Assembly: GCA_963662465.1 (NCBI GenBank)
Contig: OY759599.1
Coordinates: forward strand, 4,928,001-4,992,000
From: Desulfatiglandales bacterium
GTDB lineage: Bacteria > Desulfobacterota > DSM-4660 > Desulfatiglandales > Desulfatiglandaceae
DNA length: 64,000 bases
Direction: 5' to 3'
Position numbers and translations under genes: made by a program. Positions 53,268 to 62,374 of this stretch are shown here, in pieces. The notes beneath the pieces were generated by a model. That model searched no databases. It was not told where the DNA came from and saw only the letters and a list, made by a program, of their open reading frames with translations. Positions within the stretch are counted from its first letter, which is position 1, and every line of letters starts with the position of its first letter.

Positions 53268-54806
53268 TCAGGAGTTTTCCGGATCAAAATCGAGCGGGCT
53301 TCTAATCTCTTTTGCCGGCATGCTTTTGATGACATGCGTATAGATCATCGTTGTCCGAACATCGCTATGCCCCAAGAGGTCTTGGATCGTTCGGATGTCG
53401 TAGTTGGCCTGCAACAGATGGGTCGCAAAACTGTGGCGAAAAGTATGCGCGGTAACGCGTTTATACAGTTTTGCCTTTCGTACGGCATCCCTGATGGCGC
53501 GTTGCACATGACTTTCATGGATATGATATCTTTTTTTTTCTCCCGTGTCCCTAACGGTGGTAAGGGAAAGGCCGGGGAAAACCCATTGCCAAGCCAATTC
53601 TTTGGCCGCATTTTTATATTTTTTATCCAACCGCCCCTTTAAGAAGGCGCCGGCGTACCCGACATTCAAATCCTTTTCATGCAAATCGGCGGCCACATCG
53701 AATTGCATACGGATTTCCGGTATGACCGTTTCCGGCAAAGGGACGGAGCGGTCTTTTTTTCCTTTACCGTCATGTACGGTCAGCATACAACCCTCGAGGT
53801 CGAAATCAGCAAGGCGAAGGTTGAGACATTCAAACAATCGTAATCCACAACCGTAGAGCAATTTCACGATGAGGTCATACGGATGGGAAAGATGCGTCAA
53901 AACCAGATCAATTTCCCGCCTCGACAACACCACCGGCCTATACGGTTTCTGCTTTGCTCTGACAACGTTCTTTATGTCGCCAGGTTCCCGTTTCATAACA
54001 TGACGGAAAAAAAACAACAAGGCATTGAATGCTTGATTCTGAGTTGAAGCGGAGACCTTTCTTTTCACAGCCAGAAATGTCAAAAAGGCTTTGTAATCTT
54101 CGTCGGTGACCGCTGCCAACGTTTTGGATTTGGTGAAGACCTGAAACTTGCGGAGCCACATTGAATAGCTCTTCAATGTCTTGGGAGAGTACTGCAGAAC
54201 CATGATTTCATCACGGAGGCCATCAAAGGCGAATTTCCAGCTTGTGCCGATTTCAACCGGTTGATCTGATGTTTGCCGTTTATTGCAAATAGTTTTGTCA
54301 AAAAACCCAGAAGGTTTTCGATCCGCCTCTTGACAGGTAGTTTTCGATATCTCCTCTGCGAATTTTTGGTCCCCGAAACCCTGACAACCCGTCCGGGAGG
54401 GCGGGACGTCCACAGGCCCGGCTTGAACGGCATTTGAACGTTTCGCGGCGGACGCGGCAAAAACAGTTGTATCGTTATCTGGAAAGATCTCGGCCTTTTT
54501 GACGGACGTATTCTTTCGAATTGTCACATATTCGGCAACCGAGGGCCTTTCTTTGACGGTTTCATAATACAAAGAAACGGCATCCGAGGCTTGTCTGATT
54601 TGATAATCTTTCTGTTTTTTCTGATGGCGTTTTTCGATAAAATGACTGAGGCTTTCATGTTTTGAGACCGGATGATAATATTTTTGGCAAAAATCCCAGT
54701 AAAATCGAAGCCATTTTTTGTAATATGCCTGAAATCGCTTTTAAACGGGTTTCCTATCCAGAAAATGCTGAAAACGCGCTATGATGTCTGGCGGAACTGG
54801 AATCAT
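53268..54806 (-). pseudogene. intI: Integron integrase with N-terminal extension, interrupted by in-frame TAA at codon 22
   Basis: SASTQNQA, LYGCGLR, DGKGKKDR, integron-specific insert (KYKNAAKELAWQWVFP), HTFRHSFATHLL, LGHSDVRTTMIYTH; AGGAGG RBS and ATG at 54806, TAA at 54743-54741, frame continues KRFQAYYKKWLRFYWDFC... Confidence 0.88.
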
Positions 54807-54950
54807 GATATGCCCTCCTATTGGATGTTCAATATTACAAATACGCACAATATACGGAACGCATACGCCATGCCATTTATCTTTGTCAATAATAATTTCA
54901 TGCCGGCTTTTAACCGGCAAATCATAATGAGCCTCAGAGAAAAAGCCGGA

Positions 54951-55172
54951 AATTAGCAATTCTCATTTTGGAATTACGATCTCCTCATCCTGCTTTACAC
55001 GCCCTATGTTGGAACCCGCTTCTGGACGATCTGCGTCCTAAATCATGAATATCCCCAATTTAAACAAGTGTTTTTCGAGTTTGCCGCAGGACGCGGAGCG
55101 TCCCAAAACTATTCCCACATTAGAACGTATGAACGAGAGCGAAAGCCACATCTCTAATGAGAATTGCTAATT
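54951..55172. mobile_element. MITE/REPIN-like element with 17-bp perfect terminal inverted repeats
   Basis: AATTAGCAATTCTCATT ... AATGAGAATTGCTAATT; internal GGACG-N-CGTCC hairpins. Confidence 0.6.
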
Positions 55173-55262
55173 AAATATTTTACAGAGAATAAAAACATTG
55201 CCCTTGCATTTTTCCATCGAATAATTTACAGAATATAGATTCCAGGGGGAGATTGGTTCGAT

Positions 55263-55326
55263 TTTGTCGGATAACATGCAGAAACGGATATTTGATGACA
55301 AAAAAAACCGTATAATCACTGGTTCG
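55263..55326 (+). other. Putative attI site (interrupted by intron 1)
   Basis: Upstream of and divergent to intI; CGGATAA...CCGTATAATCACTG-GTT, with the GTT core directly abutting the intron 5' end. Confidence 0.5.
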
Positions 55327-55943
55327 TTGCGACACGAAGTCGCTTTAAATATATGTTTTCACAGAAGAATCGTGGAAACCCGGTGTTCCGCCACCGGCAT
55401 CCTAGGGAGGCATGCTGCCGTTGCGCTGATGACGGGGTGTGAAGCCCTCCCGACAATGTACCGAGGACCTTTGAAGTTGGAAAGTCGGGACAGAAAGCGT
55501 GAGTGGACTGTTCCTCTGGAAGCCTCATCCGGATTAGGGCTGGGATTGACTGATATGGTCAGTATATTCAAACACCTGCAGTATCGTAAACAGCAACAAG
55601 CCAAAGAGGCCGATAGGCTTGGACCAAACGGTGTGCGGCCAGGTCGGGAGTCTCGAACGTACGCCCGGCGCGGATGTTGTGCCGCCGGTATAGGGGGTGG
55701 ACCTAAGTCAGTTAACAGTATTTATTGCGGAACGTGGTAAGCTCGTAACATCGCCATAAAGTTTTGTGGCAAGCCAACCGTGAGGCAGGCCGTTGGTGTT
55801 GCGGGTGCAAGACGCCTTACCAAGCCAATGCCCTCCTGTAATGGGTGGAATACCGAGTTATCTCCGGCCCGAAAGGGAGCTGAATTTTGGCGGGTGCTCA
55901 TGCGTGAGATAATTTGAAGAACCTTCTGATGGGAGAATAGCAA

Positions 55944-56061
55944 ATGACGGTCTTCGTGACTGGTGCACTTCCACAACAAGCTCCAAACTGGCAACTCATT
56001 AATTGGGATGTCGTCAAGAGTAACGTGAAAAAGGCTTCAAATGCGTATTGCGCAGGCGGTT
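55944..56061 (+). pseudogene. Remnant N-terminus of intron-encoded RT
   Basis: MTVFVTGALPQQAPNWQLINWDVVKSNVK, frameshift, RLQMRIAQAV; the rest is absent before DV. Confidence 0.7.
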
Positions 56062-56178
56062 AACAACCGCCGGACTCTTCTGATGAGAAAGGGTCTTACT
56101 GAGGGCTTGAGCCGTATGCTGGGAAACTCGCGTCTACGGTTCTGAGGGTAATAGCGGCATAATACACACCTCCGTACG

Positions 56179-58266
56179 TTATTGAAAATTAAAGACTTGT
56201 TGTTTTGAGTTTCTTGAAAGCGGGCTCTTTGGAAGCCCGGAATGAGCTGCCTTTTTTATCACTTCAGATTCAAGGTCCTTTTTTGAAATGATCCATGGAG
56301 CACCGGAACATACTCGCTTGGCGGGTAGAATCTCATGTTGTATAAGTCTCCAAACTTTGGTGCTGCCAATACCCAGCCTTTCGCTTGCTTCAGCTACCGT
56401 ATATTCTTCTCGTCGCTGCCTCTCTCCTTCATGATATACAGGGATATTATGCCTATTTCGAAATGAACGCAACCTTACCGGATTCCAGGTATATCCCTTT
56501 GTAGTCTTTGTACCCACACGGTTGAGAAAGGCCACGATGTGTTTATCAGGCATAATTCTAGCCAAATCGGATATTATCTTTTTTGTATCAACATCGGTTT
56601 TCAATGGGTAACTGGAAGACTTATTCTTCAATACCTCCAATTCCGTATGCTCACCCCCTTCCCAGTGAATGATTAATTTGATCTTTTGATCTTCCAAATA
56701 AACAACGATCTCTTTGATAACCGTCCGGATTATACGCTTCTTTAAATCCAAAGAGCAAAACGGATCATTCCATACACGAGGTAAATCTTTTGATAGATCT
56801 CTGATCTCAGTCTCCTCCTCAGGGGAAAGCGAAGGGGTGTTCGATCCCATGGCGTCAACCTCATTCTCCAATCTTGCTACCTTAACAAGAGCGTCATTCC
56901 AATCCTTCTCCAATGTAGATGCTACCAAACGATTATCAGGGTCTACTGCATTGTATTGACGTTTTGCCCGTAAAGCTTCATAACGCGCTTGTTCCAACTC
57001 CAGTTCCCGTTGCCGTTTCACTGAATCCGATTCATGGTTGATTTTCTTTATCGCCTCTAAAGAAGCTTCTAATCCTATCGGTGATAATACTTTCAAAAGA
57101 AAATCCGTAACAGCCCGGTCAACACGAAATCCACCAAATGATATACACGCCTTTCCTGTCTCGGTACCTCGTTTGCGGCTACACTCATAACGTTTATGAG
57201 TTCCATTACGGCCTTGGTATCGTACAATTAACTTTCTGCCGCAATGACCGCATCTTAACAAACCTCCAAGCAATGCCTTTCCTCCGCGAACAGATCCTCT
57301 CACCACCGGCCTTTTCTTATTTGTATTTTGAGTTAGTATCTCCATGTTATACTGGTACTCTTCCCATGTGATGTAACCTTCATGGTGATCCAATATTAAA
57401 ACGTCCCAATCCTTTTGTTCCTTACGAATACCCTTCCTCAGTCGCTTGCGCCCATTTTCAAAAGTTACCTCTGTTTTAGTCCGGCCATAGACGTAGGCGC
57501 CGGCGTAAATTGGGTTGTTCACTATATGCGACAAGGTATGAGCAGACGGTAGTTTCCACTCTATCCTACGTTCCCCTTTACCGCTGGAAACAACAGCAAT
57601 CTCAATCTGTTCATCTAAAAACCAATGATACACCCGACGAAGAGTACCATATTCCTTGAATTTCGTGAATACCAAATCAATGACTTCTTGAATTCGTTTG
57701 TCAGGATTCTTTTTCAGCTTATTATCCCTAGTCTTTATATAGGCTGCCGGTACAGTAAGATATAATTCTCCCCGCTTCGCTTTTTGTTGTATTGCCGCCT
57801 GAGAACGCTCCTTTAATAGGCTCAATTCCATTGCACTCATTTCTCCCTTTAAGCCCAGGAGCAAACGATCATTTGACACGTTTAGGTCATAAACAGCTCC
57901 TTGATCTACAAGAACCGTTTTTTTAAGTGCACAGATCTCAAGCAACGTATGCCACTCTCGACCGTTGCGGGCCAACCTCGATGATTCAATCGAGAAAATA
58001 CCCCCTATTCTTCCTTCACACACAGATGAAAGAAGATTCTGGAATCCTTTTCTGTCAACGCATCCCGATGCAGTTATTCCCAAATCACTATCTATCATCC
58101 ATATGTTTTTCTCGTTCCATCCTAATTCTTTTGCCCTTTCTACCAAGCCATATTGTAAAAGTTGGCTTTCACGATGCTGTAGAACTTGGCCCGGTGTTGA
58201 CTGACGGATATATATACATGCTTCCCGACTAATATGTTCAGCATTGATTTTATTGCTCATGCTCAT
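56179..58266 (-). CDS. Large serine recombinase (resolvase + recombinase + Zn ribbon + C-terminal HTH)
   Basis: YIRQST catalytic Ser, DLGITASG, SRLARN, NPIYAGAYVYG, LLRCGHCG, YTVAEASERLGI HTH. Confidence 0.93.
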   Translation of the reverse strand: MSMSNKINAEHISREACIYIRQSTPGQVLQHRESQLLQYGLVERAKELGWNEKNIWMIDSDLGITASGCVDRKGFQNLLSSVCEGRIGGIFSIESSRLARNGREWHTLLEICALKKTVLVDQGAVYDLNVSNDRLLLGLKGEMSAMELSLLKERSQAAIQQKAKRGELYLTVPAAYIKTRDNKLKKNPDKRIQEVIDLVFTKFKEYGTLRRVYHWFLDEQIEIAVVSSGKGERRIEWKLPSAHTLSHIVNNPIYAGAYVYGRTKTEVTFENGRKRLRKGIRKEQKDWDVLILDHHEGYITWEEYQYNMEILTQNTNKKRPVVRGSVRGGKALLGGLLRCGHCGRKLIVRYQGRNGTHKRYECSRKRGTETGKACISFGGFRVDRAVTDFLLKVLSPIGLEASLEAIKKINHESDSVKRQRELELEQARYEALRAKRQYNAVDPDNRLVASTLEKDWNDALVKVARLENEVDAMGSNTPSLSPEEETEIRDLSKDLPRVWNDPFCSLDLKKRIIRTVIKEIVVYLEDQKIKLIIHWEGGEHTELEVLKNKSSSYPLKTDVDTKKIISDLARIMPDKHIVAFLNRVGTKTTKGYTWNPVRLRSFRNRHNIPVYHEGERQRREEYTVAEASERLGIGSTKVWRLIQHEILPAKRVCSGAPWIISKKDLESEVIKKAAHSGLPKSPLSRNSKQQVFNFQ

Positions 58267-58283
58267 TTCCACCTTTCTTTTCT

Positions 58284-58841
58284 CGAAATGTCAACCGAAA
58301 ATTGACCTCTTGCGACAACCGAATTTTGACCCCCATATGAGTAATTGTAAGCTGCGACGAGGTCATAGAAGGCTCCGGTGGCTCCTGCCGAAATATCCAT
58401 TAAAAGAGCGACCATAACCGCACCTTAGTCAGCTTCCGACCAGATAATCATCTGGTAAGTCGAGAAAACCCTTTTTCGTCGCTAATTCGAGTTCAATCAA
58501 ATACCCTATCTCGCCTTTCATTTTGATCTGTGAAACCATCCACTTCCGTAACCGAATCGTGACGGGGATACGCCTCAGATGTTCAGGACTCCTTTTTCGA
58601 CCAGCGCCTTTTCGACTCCCACCTCTCATTTTCATCGCTCCTTTTCACCTTCAAATTCGTCCAATATTTTTGAATACCGTGTACGTTTTTCAGTTAAACA
58701 CCTATTTCTATCGGAAAATAAGCTATTTATGATTTATCGTTACGATTTTTCTGAGTCGGATTAAGCTGCTTGCTTCAACAACTCCAGTCTCTTGACTGCT
58801 TCCAATATCAGACCGCGATTTTACGTTAGTGAAACTACTTC
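58284..58841. mobile_element. Secondary insertion with an IS21-like terminus, flanked by 8-bp direct repeat
   Basis: TGTCAACCGAAAATTGACC...CAACCGAATTTTGACC tandem end motifs; TCTTTTCT at 58276-58283 and 58842-58849. Confidence 0.5.
58429..58635 (-). CDS. Small basic putative DNA-binding protein
   Basis: RGGSRKGAGRK motif then IPVTIRL (RHH-like strand); AAGGAG RBS. Confidence 0.55.
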   Translation of the reverse strand: MKMRGGSRKGAGRKRSPEHLRRIPVTIRLRKWMVSQIKMKGEIGYLIELELATKKGFLDLPDDYLVGS

Positions 58842-58996
58842 TCTTTTCTATTTCTGTTACCCTCAGAATTTTGCCAGAAACCTGACAGAAGCTCTGCAAG
58901 GAAATCAATCAATCTATTTCGTGTTTCTATTGGAATTTCGATCGGTGATGGTAAATAATCCCAAAGCCGAAGTTGATGATATTTTTGTTTCGTCAT
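58835..58996 (-). CDS. Small hypothetical accessory protein of the recombinase element
   Basis: AAGGAGG RBS; MTKQKYHQLRLW...RLIDFLAELL; lies between the Y4bD-like gene and the recombinase. Confidence 0.6.
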   Translation of the reverse strand: MTKQKYHQLRLWDYLPSPIEIPIETRNRLIDFLAELLSGFWQNSEGNRNRKEK

Positions 58997-59315
58997 CTTT
59001 CCTCCTTGTTTTCGAATTGACTTCATCAGGAGGAAACGGTATTTTTCTATTCACTATTAAGCAATATAAATTCTTAAGCGCCCTGATTTCGATAGCGGGT
59101 TTTGAGCCGAGGGATATCTTTTCATACTTTGGATTGGTCATCCACGCAGGTATCAATTCATGGCGACCATCAGGTTTCTTTGTTACAAAACAAGTTTCTC
59201 CACGATGGTTTCTGGTACCTACCACATAAATTTCTTCACCGGTTCTTGGGTGAAAGGGGTAATATACCCGAGTTATAAACTGGTTTTGATGGGCATTATA
59301 TAGTGGTTCTGAGGG
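58914..59315 (-). CDS. Y4bD/Y4pK (DUF5372)-like protein body; start codon supplied only in the excised circle
   Basis: VYYPFHPRTGEEI...DGRHELIPAWMT; frame runs through the attachment core; no ATG between the core and the conserved YPFHP motif. Confidence 0.7.
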   Translation of the reverse strand, partial: PSEPLYNAHQNQFITRVYYPFHPRTGEEIYVVGTRNHRGETCFVTKKPDGRHELIPAWMTNPKYEKISLGSKPAIEIRALKNLYCLIVNRKIPFPPDEVNSKTRRKDDETKISSTSALGLFTITDRNSNRNTK

Positions 59316-59370
59316 GGCTTGGGGATGGCAACATCCCCTGGCTACCCGGCTTTTCTCAATCAAAAACGGC

Positions 59371-59400
59371 TTGTCTCAAAGCCACCGTCTCAGGTATAAT
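59371..59400 (+). promoter_or_regulatory. Cassette-borne sigma70 promoter for the TA operon
   Basis: TTGTCT-N18-TATAAT. Confidence 0.6.
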
Positions 59401-59441
59401 GAGGGGGTGTTCTTTTACAAATAACTTTGGATGATTAATCG

Positions 59442-59732
59442 ATGAGTATTCAATTTGAATGGGACAAAAATAAAGCGAAAACGAATCTCAAGAAACACAA
59501 AGTTAGTTTTGATGAAGCAAGTACTGTTTTCAGTGACCCATTAGCTTTGATATTTGATGATGAAGAACACTCTACGTCAGAAGAGTTACGTGAAATCATC
59601 ATCGGAAATTCTGAGAAAAGACGACTGTTATTGACCAGTTTCACAGAACGACTAGAAGATATTGTGCGGATAATTAGCTCACGTTTAGCGACAAACCATG
59701 AACGAAAGGATTATGAAGAAAATGCCTACTAA
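59442..59732 (+). CDS. brnT: BrnT family toxin (ribonuclease)
   Basis: FEWDKNKAKTNLKKHKVSFDEASTVFSDP, RIISSRLATNHERKDYE. Confidence 0.92.
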   Translation: MSIQFEWDKNKAKTNLKKHKVSFDEASTVFSDPLALIFDDEEHSTSEELREIIIGNSEKRRLLLTSFTERLEDIVRIISSRLATNHERKDYEENAY

Positions 59733-59985
59733 TTCAGCAATTGACGATTTAAAACCAGAATATAAGTTTGATTATAGTAAAGCACGTCCGAATCGTTTTG
59801 CTAAACGAGTCACTGAGGATAGTGTTATTGTGGTGCTTGACCCTGATGTAGCACAGGTTTTTACTTCTGCGGAGGCAGTCAATGCTGTTTTACGAGCGCT
59901 CATTCAAAACATGCCTAATGTTACTATTCCAGCACAAGTTACAGAGGTTCTCACGGCAAACAAACATCATGGTTCAATCCGCTAA
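59713..59985 (+). CDS. BrnA-like antitoxin
   Basis: LKPEYKFDYSKARPNRFA, VVLDPDVAQVF...VNAVLRAL; overlaps the toxin stop; its TAA lies in the attC R'' box. Confidence 0.85.
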   Translation: MKKMPTNSAIDDLKPEYKFDYSKARPNRFAKRVTEDSVIVVLDPDVAQVFTSAEAVNAVLRALIQNMPNVTIPAQVTEVLTANKHHGSIR

Positions 59986-60673
59986 CCAAGCGCTCCTCGC
60001 GCCGAGGTAAGCCCGAAACCTTGGGAACCCGCGTAAATCGGGATGAAATTGGTTATTGTTATCCAGTGGGTGATCGCGGAAAGCGAAAGTCCCACCCGAG
60101 CAGAGGTTAGCCACCAGCTCGGTAGTGAAGTCCACGTGCAAACCGGGTAACCGGCGTACGGAGCTGGACGGAACGAGAATCCAGGCTGCGTATTGAGCCC
60201 CGAAAAATGTATAGTTGTGGTCATTGGATAACCCTGTGAAATCAGGGGAACGCCGACGCTTTGGAGCAAGCGGAAGACAGCAGACCTTGATGCGCCATGG
60301 CGAGTGTTGAGGTTGCCACCGGGGTCTTAGACCAGGGCATGGATTCAAATGGATAGCTCGGGAACTCGGGAGAACCAAAAGTTTCCTTGTTTAGAGACCC
60401 GGAAGATGAGGGGCGCCGGGAGATTAAGAGCCCTGGCGTTTGCGGGCTGCTTTCACCTGCAAATGAGTCGCAAGAAACACAAAGAAAGAAAGCAGGCAGG
60501 GTATCAGGTGTGGACAGCGAAAAGCGAACGTGCCTGAGAGGGACTTTTGGTAGTCTTAGCGGAACATAGTACCGATGGCGCCGAGGATGGTGCTGGGAAG
60601 GTGGGGAAGTGGCGCCCAAGCGACCCACTGTAGGGAAGGTGAAGCAGGGTATAACGTTTTTCTGATAGGAACT

Positions 60674-62374
60674 ATGGAAGACACTCAGAGGTCACAACCC
60701 ATATCAATGGAAAATCAGGAAATTGCGGAGCAGGTTGCCCAGAAGTCCGAAGAACCGAGTACACATGGTCTCCCCGTACTGGTCAGTGAATCAAGTCTTG
60801 CCCGGGTAGCAATACGGGGGATGGCCGATTCGCAAACGGTGTTCTCATCACTTGCGCATTGGACCGACTTTGATTTATTGAAAAAGTCATTCAAGGCATT
60901 GAGTAAGAATGAGTCAACCGGAGTTGATAGGATAACGGCGAAGGACTATGCTGTCGATCTTAATGAAAACCTCTATAAACTGTACGAACGGCTGCAAAGA
61001 GGGCAGTACGTTGCATCTCCGGTCAAGCGCATATGGGTGGACAAGGAAGGCGGTAAAAAGAGACCGATAGGGATTCCGGCGTTGGAGGACAAGATTGTCC
61101 AGAAAGCGGTGGCGACTTTGCTGGGGCTGGCTTACGAACCCTTGTTTTATGAAGTTTCCCATGGATTTCGGGAAGGTCACAGTCAACACCTGGCGCTGAA
61201 AGAACTTCGTGAAAAGTGTGCCGGTTTGAACATAAACTGGATTTTGAGCGCGGATATTACGGGACTATTTGACAATATAGATCACTCATTATTACGAGAA
61301 ATACTGCGTAAAAGGGTGAATGATGGCGGCATCCTGCGGCTAATCGGCAAGTGGTTGAACGCCGGGGTCGTGGAGGGTGACGAAACCATATACCCTGAGA
61401 AAGGAACGCCTCAAGGCGGGTTATGCAAAGCTTTGCATAACCCGCCTTATGCCAAGTTGCCGATTATGCAAAGTAAACCGCTAAAGCTACCAGATTTCCA
61501 ACACCTTCACTGAGTTTACTTTGCATAATATCACGGGTATCTCAAACTTGAAATCCAATTAAACGATGCAGCATCCTTGGTTTATTTTGGATAAAATGAT
61601 CTGGTTTTTTTCCGACAAATGATTTTGTGAGCTTTTCGCTCAGTCATCATTAGCAAAGATTATGCTAAGTAAATCAAAAAGAAACCCTTGAATTCCAATG
61701 CGTTTTATGGCTTACTTTGCATAATTACTTTCTTTGCATAAGGCGGCGTCATTTCACCGGTGCTGAGTAATATATTTTTGCACGAGGTGCTGGACGGCTG
61801 GTTTGTCAAAGAAGTTGAACCGAGGCTGAAGGGGAAGTGTTTTTTGGTCCGCTTTGCGGATGATTTCATAATCGGGTTTCAATTGAAGTCTGATGCTGAA
61901 CGGTTGATGGCAGTTTTGCCCAAGCGTTTTGAGAAATACAAGCTAAGCCTTCACCCGGGAAAGACCAGATTGATAGCCTTTGGAAGGCCAATGGCCGGTG
62001 CAAAGCGTGAGACCTTTGATTTCTTAGGTTTTACCTACTACTGGGGCAGGTCCTTAAAGGGGCGGTGGGTGATTAAGAAGAAGACGGCTGGTAAGCGTTT
62101 AAGGCGTTTTCTGAGTATGACGTGGAGTTGGTGTAAGGAGAGCCGCCATGATCCCATGAAGGAGCAGCATGAGATTTTATGCAGCAAACTTCGGGGGTTC
62201 TATCAATATTTTGGTGTACGCTCGAACTACAAAGCACTTGAAGTGGCGTATGAATACGCGATGAAGGCCTGGCGTTACTGGCTAAGCCGGAGGAGTTCCG
62301 ACGGCCTGGTGTTGTTTGCAGACCTGCAAAGGAGCCACCCACTGCCAATTCCGAAAATAGTCCACGGATTCTGA
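60674..62374 (+). pseudogene. ltrA: Intron-encoded reverse transcriptase/maturase, interrupted at GTPQGG
   Basis: RPIGIPALEDKIVQ, ADITGLFDNIDH, GTPQGG | VISPVLSNIFLH, RFADD, FDFLGF; no endonuclease domain. Confidence 0.9.
61420..61746. mobile_element. 327-bp non-autonomous element with multiple TTATGCAAAG sites (RIT-like ends)
   Basis: AAGGCGG direct repeat (61413-61419, 61740-61746); 36-bp perfect palindrome 61413-61448; terminal IR CCGCCTTATGC(C/A)AAG. Confidence 0.8.

Follow-up and report, generated by a model that had tools for sequence, protein, structure and literature searches.

Tn4451/Tn4453 and Tn5397 are small, multi-copy elements, each with a single large serine recombinase (LSR; TnpX and TndX, respectively) and with short-core target sites that resemble their own joined ends. 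TnpX alone carries out both the excision and the insertion reaction, and something is expressed only from the circular form. For Tn4451 the circle joint reportedly forms the tnpX promoter (Lyras and Rood 2000). The subject of this work is a comparable insert, which separates domain V (DV) from domain VI (DVI) of a group II intron in a 64-kb stretch of the genome of a Desulfatiglandales bacterium (contig OY759599.1; this whole stretch is hereafter called the window, and all positions refer to its + strand unless marked otherwise). We consider it very probable that the insert is an integrated small (3.17 kb) mobile element, which has an LSR as its sole recombinase and lands site-specifically in group II introns; by analogy of mechanism it is a serine-integrase element of the Tn4451/Tn5397 kind. 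It differs from these transposons in that it targets the ribozyme core of a second kind of mobile element, in the lack of resistance cargo, and in that the circle would assemble the coding start of an accessory DUF5372-like gene and not a recombinase promoter; moreover, its LSR is probably only distantly related to TnpX and TndX, judged by the absence of a specific family match.

The element shares the combination of resolvase, recombinase and zinc-ribbon domains and a short common core with the phage and island serine integrases (phiC31, Bxb1, A118, the Ccr proteins of SCCmec, and XisF of the fdxN element), and its integration would be conservative like theirs. The known landing places of serine integrases are host genes or sites of loose definition, whereas here the bacterial-type attachment site (attB) lies in a selfish ribozyme and not in a host gene. 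In addition, the element carries no phage or island cargo, is present in seven copies in one genome, and has an excisionase-type helix-turn-helix (HTH) fused to the LSR, while no separate directionality factor was recognised. One mobile element within another is also found in twintrons, in IStrons and in group II introns fragmented by insertion sequences (ISs). Inactivation by fragmentation is reported for RmInt1 of Sinorhizobium meliloti (PMC4496777), and IStrons are reported to join a group I intron with an IS (PMC4227781). In contrast to such nested arrangements, which represent retrohoming into introns, chance IS insertions or cooperative chimeras, the present element has a site-specific recombinase that uses the DV/DVI joint as a dedicated site. 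Titles and abstract beginnings on serine recombinases and group II introns, or on DUF5372, from outside the subscription journals yielded no description of such an element (PMC4853749 proved unrelated). The new features are the target in the ribozyme core of group II introns, the conservation of this target throughout the family with matched core variants, and the split coding start of the accessory gene.

The insert and its seven copies

The insert is delimited by an exact 11-bp direct repeat, GGTTCTGAGGG, at 56138–56148 (left core, attL) and 59305–59315 (right core, attR), both on the + strand. The left core begins with GGTTC, the final 5 nt of DV, continues with TGA, the J5/6 linker, and closes with GGG; the right core is its second exact copy. 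No further copies exist in the window, where about 0.03 exact matches to an 11-mer are expected by chance on both strands (simple arithmetic); with one mismatch allowed, 4 were found against 1.17 expected. The repeats enclose 3,156 bp, which separate DV (56109–56142) from DVI (about 59313–59349; the DVI-type hairpin with the intron 3' end, 59313–59350 on the + strand, ends in GGCTACCCGG). The split of DV from DVI by about 3.17 kb with an exact 11-bp repeat, noticed in an earlier reading of the sequence alone (hereafter the sequence-only reading), is thus confirmed.

All reading frames of the insert are on the - strand. The largest encodes the LSR of 697 aa (56179–58272), in which four Pfam domains were identified above their cut-offs: Resolvase (PF00239, residues 19–169, E-value 7.3e-19), Recombinase (PF07508, 195–315), Zn_ribbon_recom (PF13408, 334–377), and, near the C-terminus, the excisionase-type helix-turn-helix HTH_17 (PF12728, 624–668). 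Hence, all three LSR-defining domains are present, in a protein far larger than the small resolvases. Its residues 21–26 form the motif Y-I-R-Q-S-T, with Ser25, which we take to be the nucleophile. The protein matches the phrog_95 integrase (E-value 3.8e-55), shows a below-cut-off likeness to the NCBIfam models of XisF (112.8 bits vs 375), CcrA/B/C and TIGR01764 'excise', and has a single match in the PDB, the catalytic domain of a conjugative-transposon recombinase (E-value 3.2e-4). No other recombinase or transposase domain was found with Pfam, phrog and NCBIfam in any open reading frame (ORF) of 56149–59304.

The 3,178-bp unit (core to core) is present in 7 copies in the 8.16-Mb source genome, with 98.8–99.8% pairwise identity (blastn), corresponding to 6–36 substitutions in 3.2 kb. 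Besides the window copy, five end exactly at the core and one (copy F) has altered cores. In one copy an insertion of 2.85 kb interrupts the recombinase gene; the six remaining LSR genes are intact full-length frames with 98–100% protein identity. DV is found on the left of six of the seven copies, across two intron families, and DVI-type sequence on the right of all seven, which supports the inference of the sequence-only reading that the element integrates at the DV end of group II introns. Five of the DV-flanked copies reside in one ORF-less intron family (family 1), whose DV differs from that of the window at many positions. On the right, sequence of the type GGGGCT[C/T]GGGG...GGCTACCCGG recurs behind the other five standard copies, and beyond it all flanks differ; the 3' exons are different for all DV-flanked copies, therefore these copies occupy different loci. 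The right flank of copy F is the DVI of a third intron family.

Around 3.297–3.354 Mb of the source genome many introns are arranged head-to-tail, the 3' exon of one beginning with the 5' end of the next, and three copies of the LSR element lie within this array. The IS-like insert that splits one copy (2,850 bp; G000:C1:3315893-3318742, i.e. L073 94-2943) ends in imperfect inverted repeats of about 25 nt and is flanked by a target duplication of 8 bp, CAAATCGG. It contains two ORFs, of 620 and 230 aa, which lack matches in Pfam and NCBIfam and may encode an unclassified transposase; a second copy of this insert is located at 2503316-2506165 and a third one is broken.

Target site, core and crossover

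The host intron in the window, from its 5' end to DV, occupies 55327–56142 on the + strand and is an ORF-less derivative. Its 5' part matches RF02012 (group II D1–D4 in Rfam) at 55379–55540 with 93.8 bits. The DV matches positions 1–40 of RF00029 with all pairs present (56107–56177); the score of 37.1 bits remains below the 40-bit cut-off because the DVI half is absent, and L002, a sibling of this intron that lacks the insert, reaches 52.6 bits. A remnant of a reverse-transcriptase (RT) gene, comprising about 35 N-terminal codons, was recognised by eye near 55945–56060, and Pfam revealed no RVT_1 domain between 55264 and 56109. The intron aligns with two sibling copies at 98–99% from TGCGACACG onward, and its 5' end, T-TGCGAC, does not conform to the canonical GUGYG. 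The sequence-only reading has the integrated element block splicing and its excision restore it, which may not apply here: as judged from this sequence, the ORF-less host intron with T instead of G at the start may not splice anyway.

According to the sequence-only reading, deletion of the insert restores a normal intron 3' end. A plausible DV–DVI would indeed be obtained, but it is possibly a hybrid of two introns: the window intron and L002 (G000:C1:3307325-3307400) are 99% identical up to GGTTCTGAGG and unrelated from the next base, i.e. their similarity stops a single base short of the core's end, and the DVI of L002 is quite different. DVI of the kind found in the right flank of the window occurs also behind intact DVs elsewhere in the genome. 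The abrupt divergence from L002 would be the expected trace of an exchange between two different occupied introns at the core, and it suggests that recombination at the att core may swap DVI and 3' exons between introns.

At least 37 DVs were counted in the source genome by a regular-expression scan that misses some types, e.g. the DV of the second intron of the window. Eight of them read GGTTCTGAGGG, of which six are occupied and two are empty, with a different DVI start. No occupied member is found in two other intron families (13 and 11 copies), whose linker or DVI is different; only introns reading GGTTC-TGAG-GGGGCT are occupied in this genome. From the pattern of occupied and empty DVs it follows that the linker and the beginning of DVI belong to the site, and that a DV of any kind is not sufficient. 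The predicted target thus comprises the 3' strand of DV, the J5/6 linker and the 5' strand of DVI, roughly 40 bp in total. The proposal that the conserved DV motif serves as attB holds for the 3' strand of DV, while the site extends to J5/6 and the 5' strand of DVI and the crossover is likely to fall in TGAG and not inside DV; the idea of a widespread landing site needs to be narrowed, as the site is not universal and the 24 introns of the two families with differing linker or DVI are all empty.

Relatives of the element were collected as 46 related loci from sediment-type metagenomes and from metagenome-assembled genomes (MAGs) labelled as Deltaproteobacteria/Thermodesulfobacteriota, an Olavius symbiont and one Dojkabacteria bin. 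In 38 of them the LSR is 70–84% identical, and 35 of these were scanned with Rfam, the 3 without the LSR 3' end being excluded. A DV-type match (RF00029, RF04357 or RF04356) was found within about 40 nt beyond the LSR stop in 19 of the 24 loci with at least 80 nt of flank, and in 8 of these 19 it attains RF00029's own cut-off. All 19 matches lie on the strand opposite to the LSR gene, hence the element is antisense to the intron, as the sequence-only reading had stated. At the other end, 22 loci have a flank of 40 nt or more, and in 19 of them it folds into a hairpin that resembles DVI in having one unpaired A on the 3' side close to its base. The host introns span several classes (D1D4-2, -6 and -7 matches; DVs ending in GGTTC, GGATC or GGGTC). 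Where both features are on the contig, the D1–D4 match and DV are only 330–550 nt apart (a distance biased by short contigs), which indicates that these hosts are ORF-less too. Contigs of a marine metagenome (X3) run straight from DV into DVI, representing empty sites, and others carry the element. Most of the close homologues are therefore not at unrelated sites, and the view of the element as a hyperparasite, a parasite of a parasite, is supported by the copies in the genome as well as by the intron junctions of the relatives. More distant homologues of the LSR (33–37% identity; L019, L020, L031, L069-L071) fall outside the intron-targeting clade: no DV was seen behind the four that were read (L031, L069-L071), and a profile search of the six loci identified no DUF5372-like ORF.

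For the analysis of the crossover, the junctions were aligned by the conserved element ends at fixed offsets, since a search for the longest common substring had mis-picked the cores in several loci; core positions are numbered 1–11, with TGAG (linker plus first base of DVI) at 6–9. The core shared by the two ends, 11 nt in the window, was found by hand to be 5–10 nt in L034, L035, L036, L042, L047 and L054. This variation in sequence and length fits the identity between att sites, whereas a target-site duplication would be of fixed length. One and the same left arm is seen with TGAG, TTAG, TGTG or TTTG, tracking the type of DV. Positions 6–7 of the right junction track the right arm of the element (CT in three loci whose left junctions have TG or TT), and position 8 tracks the intron on both sides. 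From these alignments, crossover is most likely at positions 8–9, which read AG here and TG or CG in other loci, each variant being matched to its class of intron.

A gene divided between the element ends

The left end of the element (56149–56178, 30 bp, - strand) contains GGAGG (56173–56169), a spacer of 8 nt and an ATG (56160–56158), followed by 3 more codons into the core. This start is located 13 nt behind the recombinase stop, and the stretch of about 34 nt is the best conserved non-coding part across the relatives. The body of a DUF5372-like gene (58914–59304, - strand; 129 codons and stop), without a start codon of its own inside the element, is found at the opposite end. With the ends joined in silico through one core, the ATG at 56160 is in frame with this body; of 26 cases, made up of the 7 genome copies and the 19 loci with both ends, 25 give on joining an open frame of 114–137 codons that follows GGAGG-8 nt-ATG. 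The sole exception has TT at positions 6–7 of the left junction, and on the model of crossover at 8–9 this TT would not be part of attP, the attachment site of the circle. Such joining predicts that the DUF5372-like gene is whole only on the excised circle.

The DUF5372-like protein was identified in 18 further loci, with 42–64% identity to that of the window and 25 invariant columns. Its match to PF17342 (DUF5372) scores 20.7 bits, below the gathering cut-off of 25 bits; 7 of the 19 family members match this family at E-values up to 0.01, none of them above the cut-off, while 30 of 30 feature matches in the protein Atlas are DUF5372 clusters. The predicted structure contains a small SH3/KOW-like barrel (residues 6–57; pLDDT about 90 for residues 11–60). 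A function based on the fold was not assigned, as comparisons returned only generic SH3/KOW/Tudor barrels (Z up to 5.1, Foldseek E-values of at least 0.046). Canonical DUF5372 genes are present in 5 of the 301 genomes of the phylum that were searched (L083-L087, from G266, G104, G237, G126 and G296). In all three loci with downstream sequence (L083-L085) the gene is followed on the same strand by a small HTH/DUF6788 gene and then by a Resolvase-domain gene, and 3 of the 5 loci adjoin, on the opposite strand, genes of the IS21 type (IstB, Mu-transposase C) or group II RT genes. Judged from this gene order, DUF5372 seems to accompany regularly the recombinases of a wider clade, whose members tend to be located within other mobile elements.

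The following mechanism would account for these observations. The element would excise as a circle, which would re-integrate by conservative site-specific recombination between its own attachment site and the target of about 40 bp at DV, J5/6 and DVI, always antisense to the intron. Strands would be exchanged within the shared TGAG, the likeliest place being the last base of the linker and the first base of DVI (AG here; TG or CG in the variants), and variants of the element would carry the dinucleotide that matches their intron class. As with TnpX, the LSR alone would presumably perform both reactions. Integration would cut the ribozyme core in two, with a possible effect on splicing, and would part the DUF5372-like start (ribosome-binding site, ATG and 3 codons) from the body; because of this separation, the protein with its own start could be made only from the circle. 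A classical directionality factor is an unlikely role for it, because such a factor would block integration. Our guess is that the protein helps the circle to integrate or commits it to integration, or that it reports the excised state.

Of the remaining parts of the element, a conserved small ORF (58835–59026, - strand; 63 aa as listed) lies between the DUF5372-like gene and the recombinase gene; tblastn detected it in 30 of the 46 related loci (41–61% identity), and it has no family match in Pfam, phrog or NCBIfam. A lineage-specific segment of about 0.56 kb (58290–58830, - strand) is missing from the relatives L028 and L034 and occurs in the source genome only inside the 7 element copies. 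It holds a basic ORF of 68 aa (58429–58635) without a homologue in the 46 related loci or a match in Pfam or NCBIfam, which also shows no relation to the DUF5372-like profile. An inverted 15-nt near-copy of the core and left arm at 58854-58868, within the 63-aa ORF (14 of 15 positions complementary), was considered as an internal half-site; in 22 relatives only matches with 3–5 mismatches in scattered places were found, and we regard it as due to chance or lineage-specific. Predicted promoters and terminators in 56000–59500 are no more numerous than in shuffled sequences. Contigs of a metatranscriptome run (X10) extend over 56145–59348; these contigs show no strand and may also derive from DNA.

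Possible excision, alternative explanations and neighbouring features

Contigs of four public runs were compared with 55000–60000 of the window. One contig of X1, a run that bears the label of this organism, connects 56137 directly with 59305 and thus omits 3,167 bases; its depth is 2.9. The depth of the unique right flank is 42.9 and that of the element about 245, a ratio that corresponds to the expected six- to seven-fold. The joining contig consists of 50 nt (21 nt, about 9 shared, 21 nt), as an assembly with k=31 yields for words spanning the core. The joined word of 21+11+21 nt is not in the genome assembly, which contains each of its two halves (the left flank with the core, and the core with the right flank) exactly once. 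An element-free form of the window locus, exact to the base, thus makes up about 7% of the local depth. Empty sites, which the sequence-only reading had proposed to seek in related genomes, were found both within the source genome and as a low-depth allele of the window locus. The joining contig points to precise excision, and the empty allele reflects either excision in the culture or a variant strain.

Several observations weigh against site-specific integration into introns by the LSR, or complicate it. The excision joint is a single contig of 50 nt with a depth of 2.9 and 21 nt on its shorter side, and it could derive from a co-existing strain that never carried the element at the window locus. 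The circle junction (attP) was not seen in the assembly, in contig joints of the four runs or in the 46 loci, and no contigs with terminal overlaps, a sign of circles, were found. The flanks in the window are not those of a simple interrupted intron, as the 99% identical sibling carries another DVI, and the left end of copy F is within an IS91 transposase gene (Zn_Tnp_IS91 and Y2_Tnp). Among the relatives, 5 of 24 have no DV match: a single junction, still within an intron (D1D4-6 match about 240 nt on), is common to L038, L040 and L041, L051 retains only the 3' part of DV, and L061 has no DV on the left. CAGGG(G) is present at the joint in 3 of 4 non-DV left junctions (L040/41, L061 and copy F). 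Three of the 22 right ends are not DVI-like: that of L034, that of L046, where DV lies in inverted orientation, and that of L052, which was recognised by eye as a groES-like coding sequence. Finally, no single crossover position fits all pairs of attL and attR: positions 8–9 fail for L048, L049, L055, copy F and L040/41, where the dinucleotides differ between the ends, and positions 6–7 for L051-L053, L058, copy F and L040/41. Where metagenome contigs run through a repeat with many copies they may be chimeras, and recombination between copies can occur as well.

Could the LSR cassette instead be the cargo of a composite retroelement, copied by retrohoming of the whole unit? Five copies in one ORF-less intron family at five sites are what retrohoming would also give, and the copies C and G are close in both element (99.78%) and intron (96.99%). 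However, the five family-1 host introns are only 93.6–97.6% alike over about 800 nt, as compared with 98.8–99.8% for their elements, and this roughly 5-fold higher divergence indicates separate insertions and not one copied unit of intron plus cargo. The distances are also incongruent: the elements of the copies B and D are 99.43% alike and their introns 93.63%, while the element closest to that of the window (99.81%) is copy D, which is housed in the other intron family, and copy F lies beside the DVI of a third. The lower divergence together with the incongruent distances suggests that the elements are younger than the intron copies and have crossed between families. Furthermore, empty introns with the same DV exist, relatives occupy introns of several classes, and branching should suffer when 3.2 kb are inserted, in antisense, into a J5/6 linker of 3 nt, all of which makes a composite retroelement very improbable. 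It is still harder to believe that the 11-bp repeat is the target-site duplication of a transposase and the recombinase only a resolvase or passenger. Direct repeats around an insert are the typical trace of a transposase, but the element contains no transposase domain and no terminal inverted repeats beyond chance level, and its protein has the full LSR domain set of integrases; moreover, the shared core varies among relatives in sequence and length (5–11 nt, by hand) and corresponds to a sequence present once in the empty target beside matching element ends, as in att sites.

A somewhat less remote, though still improbable, explanation is that the element once targeted introns and is now immobile, in which case the copies would be passive relics and the 'empty' contig would come from a second strain. 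The missing circle junction, the depth of 2.9 with a side of 21 nt, the copy broken by an insertion and the one with non-matching ends would all agree with such a decay. On the other hand, relics would hardly be expected to retain six intact LSR genes with 98–100% protein identity and conserved accessory genes, to differ by just 6–36 substitutions in 3.2 kb, or to show an empty junction exact to the base. An element that inserts site-specifically into introns by means of its LSR thus agrees best with the repeated, independent use of the same junction in this genome and in the relatives.

A dedicated site at the most conserved joint of a self-splicing retroelement would mean that one selfish element polices or exploits another, and the element may shape the intron load of intron-rich genomes such as the source genome, with its DVs numbering at least 37. 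As a tentative extension, which we consider rather doubtful as a whole, elements with DUF5372 and an LSR could form a wide, unrecognised class of hyperparasites that have their att sites in mobile DNA of other kinds, such as the group II intron cores of the present case and, among relatives, genes of IS91, IS21 and intron RTs. If this joint reading were correct, attP would be built into the 5' end of a gene, so that a protein would signal the circular state, the arms would co-evolve with the intron classes together with the crossover dinucleotide, and recombination between copies would swap DVI and 3' exons, as the hybrid flanks of the window suggest. Introns and their integron-type cassette arrays would thereby be shuffled, with a possible reversible off-switch for intron mobility. 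The family also offers natural matched sets of attP, attB, attL and attR for many related recombinases, with variants that differ in the presumed crossover dinucleotide, i.e. the kind of orthogonal set sought for genome engineering, and the gene predicted to be whole only on the circle may serve as a model of a minimal element that senses its own excision.

Further features lie around the host intron in the window. A second group II intron (60086–62374) has an RF02005 match at 60086–60334, and its RT is distributed over two ORFs (60575–61513 and 61760–62374), which match positions 2–123 and 129–204 of RVT_1 and are split by about 250 nt. Between the two introns, in 59442–59985, lies a BrnT toxin gene (PF04365, E-value 1.2e-24), placed like a gene cassette and overlapped by an ORF of 95 aa, which is probably its antitoxin. 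On the other side, a tyrosine recombinase of 434 aa (SAM_4 and Phage_integrase) is encoded on the - strand in 53268–55170, and inverted repeats of about 15 nt, ATTAGCAATTCTCAT and ATGAGAATTGCTAAT, were recognised by eye at about 54955 and 55155, a short distance before the start of the host intron.

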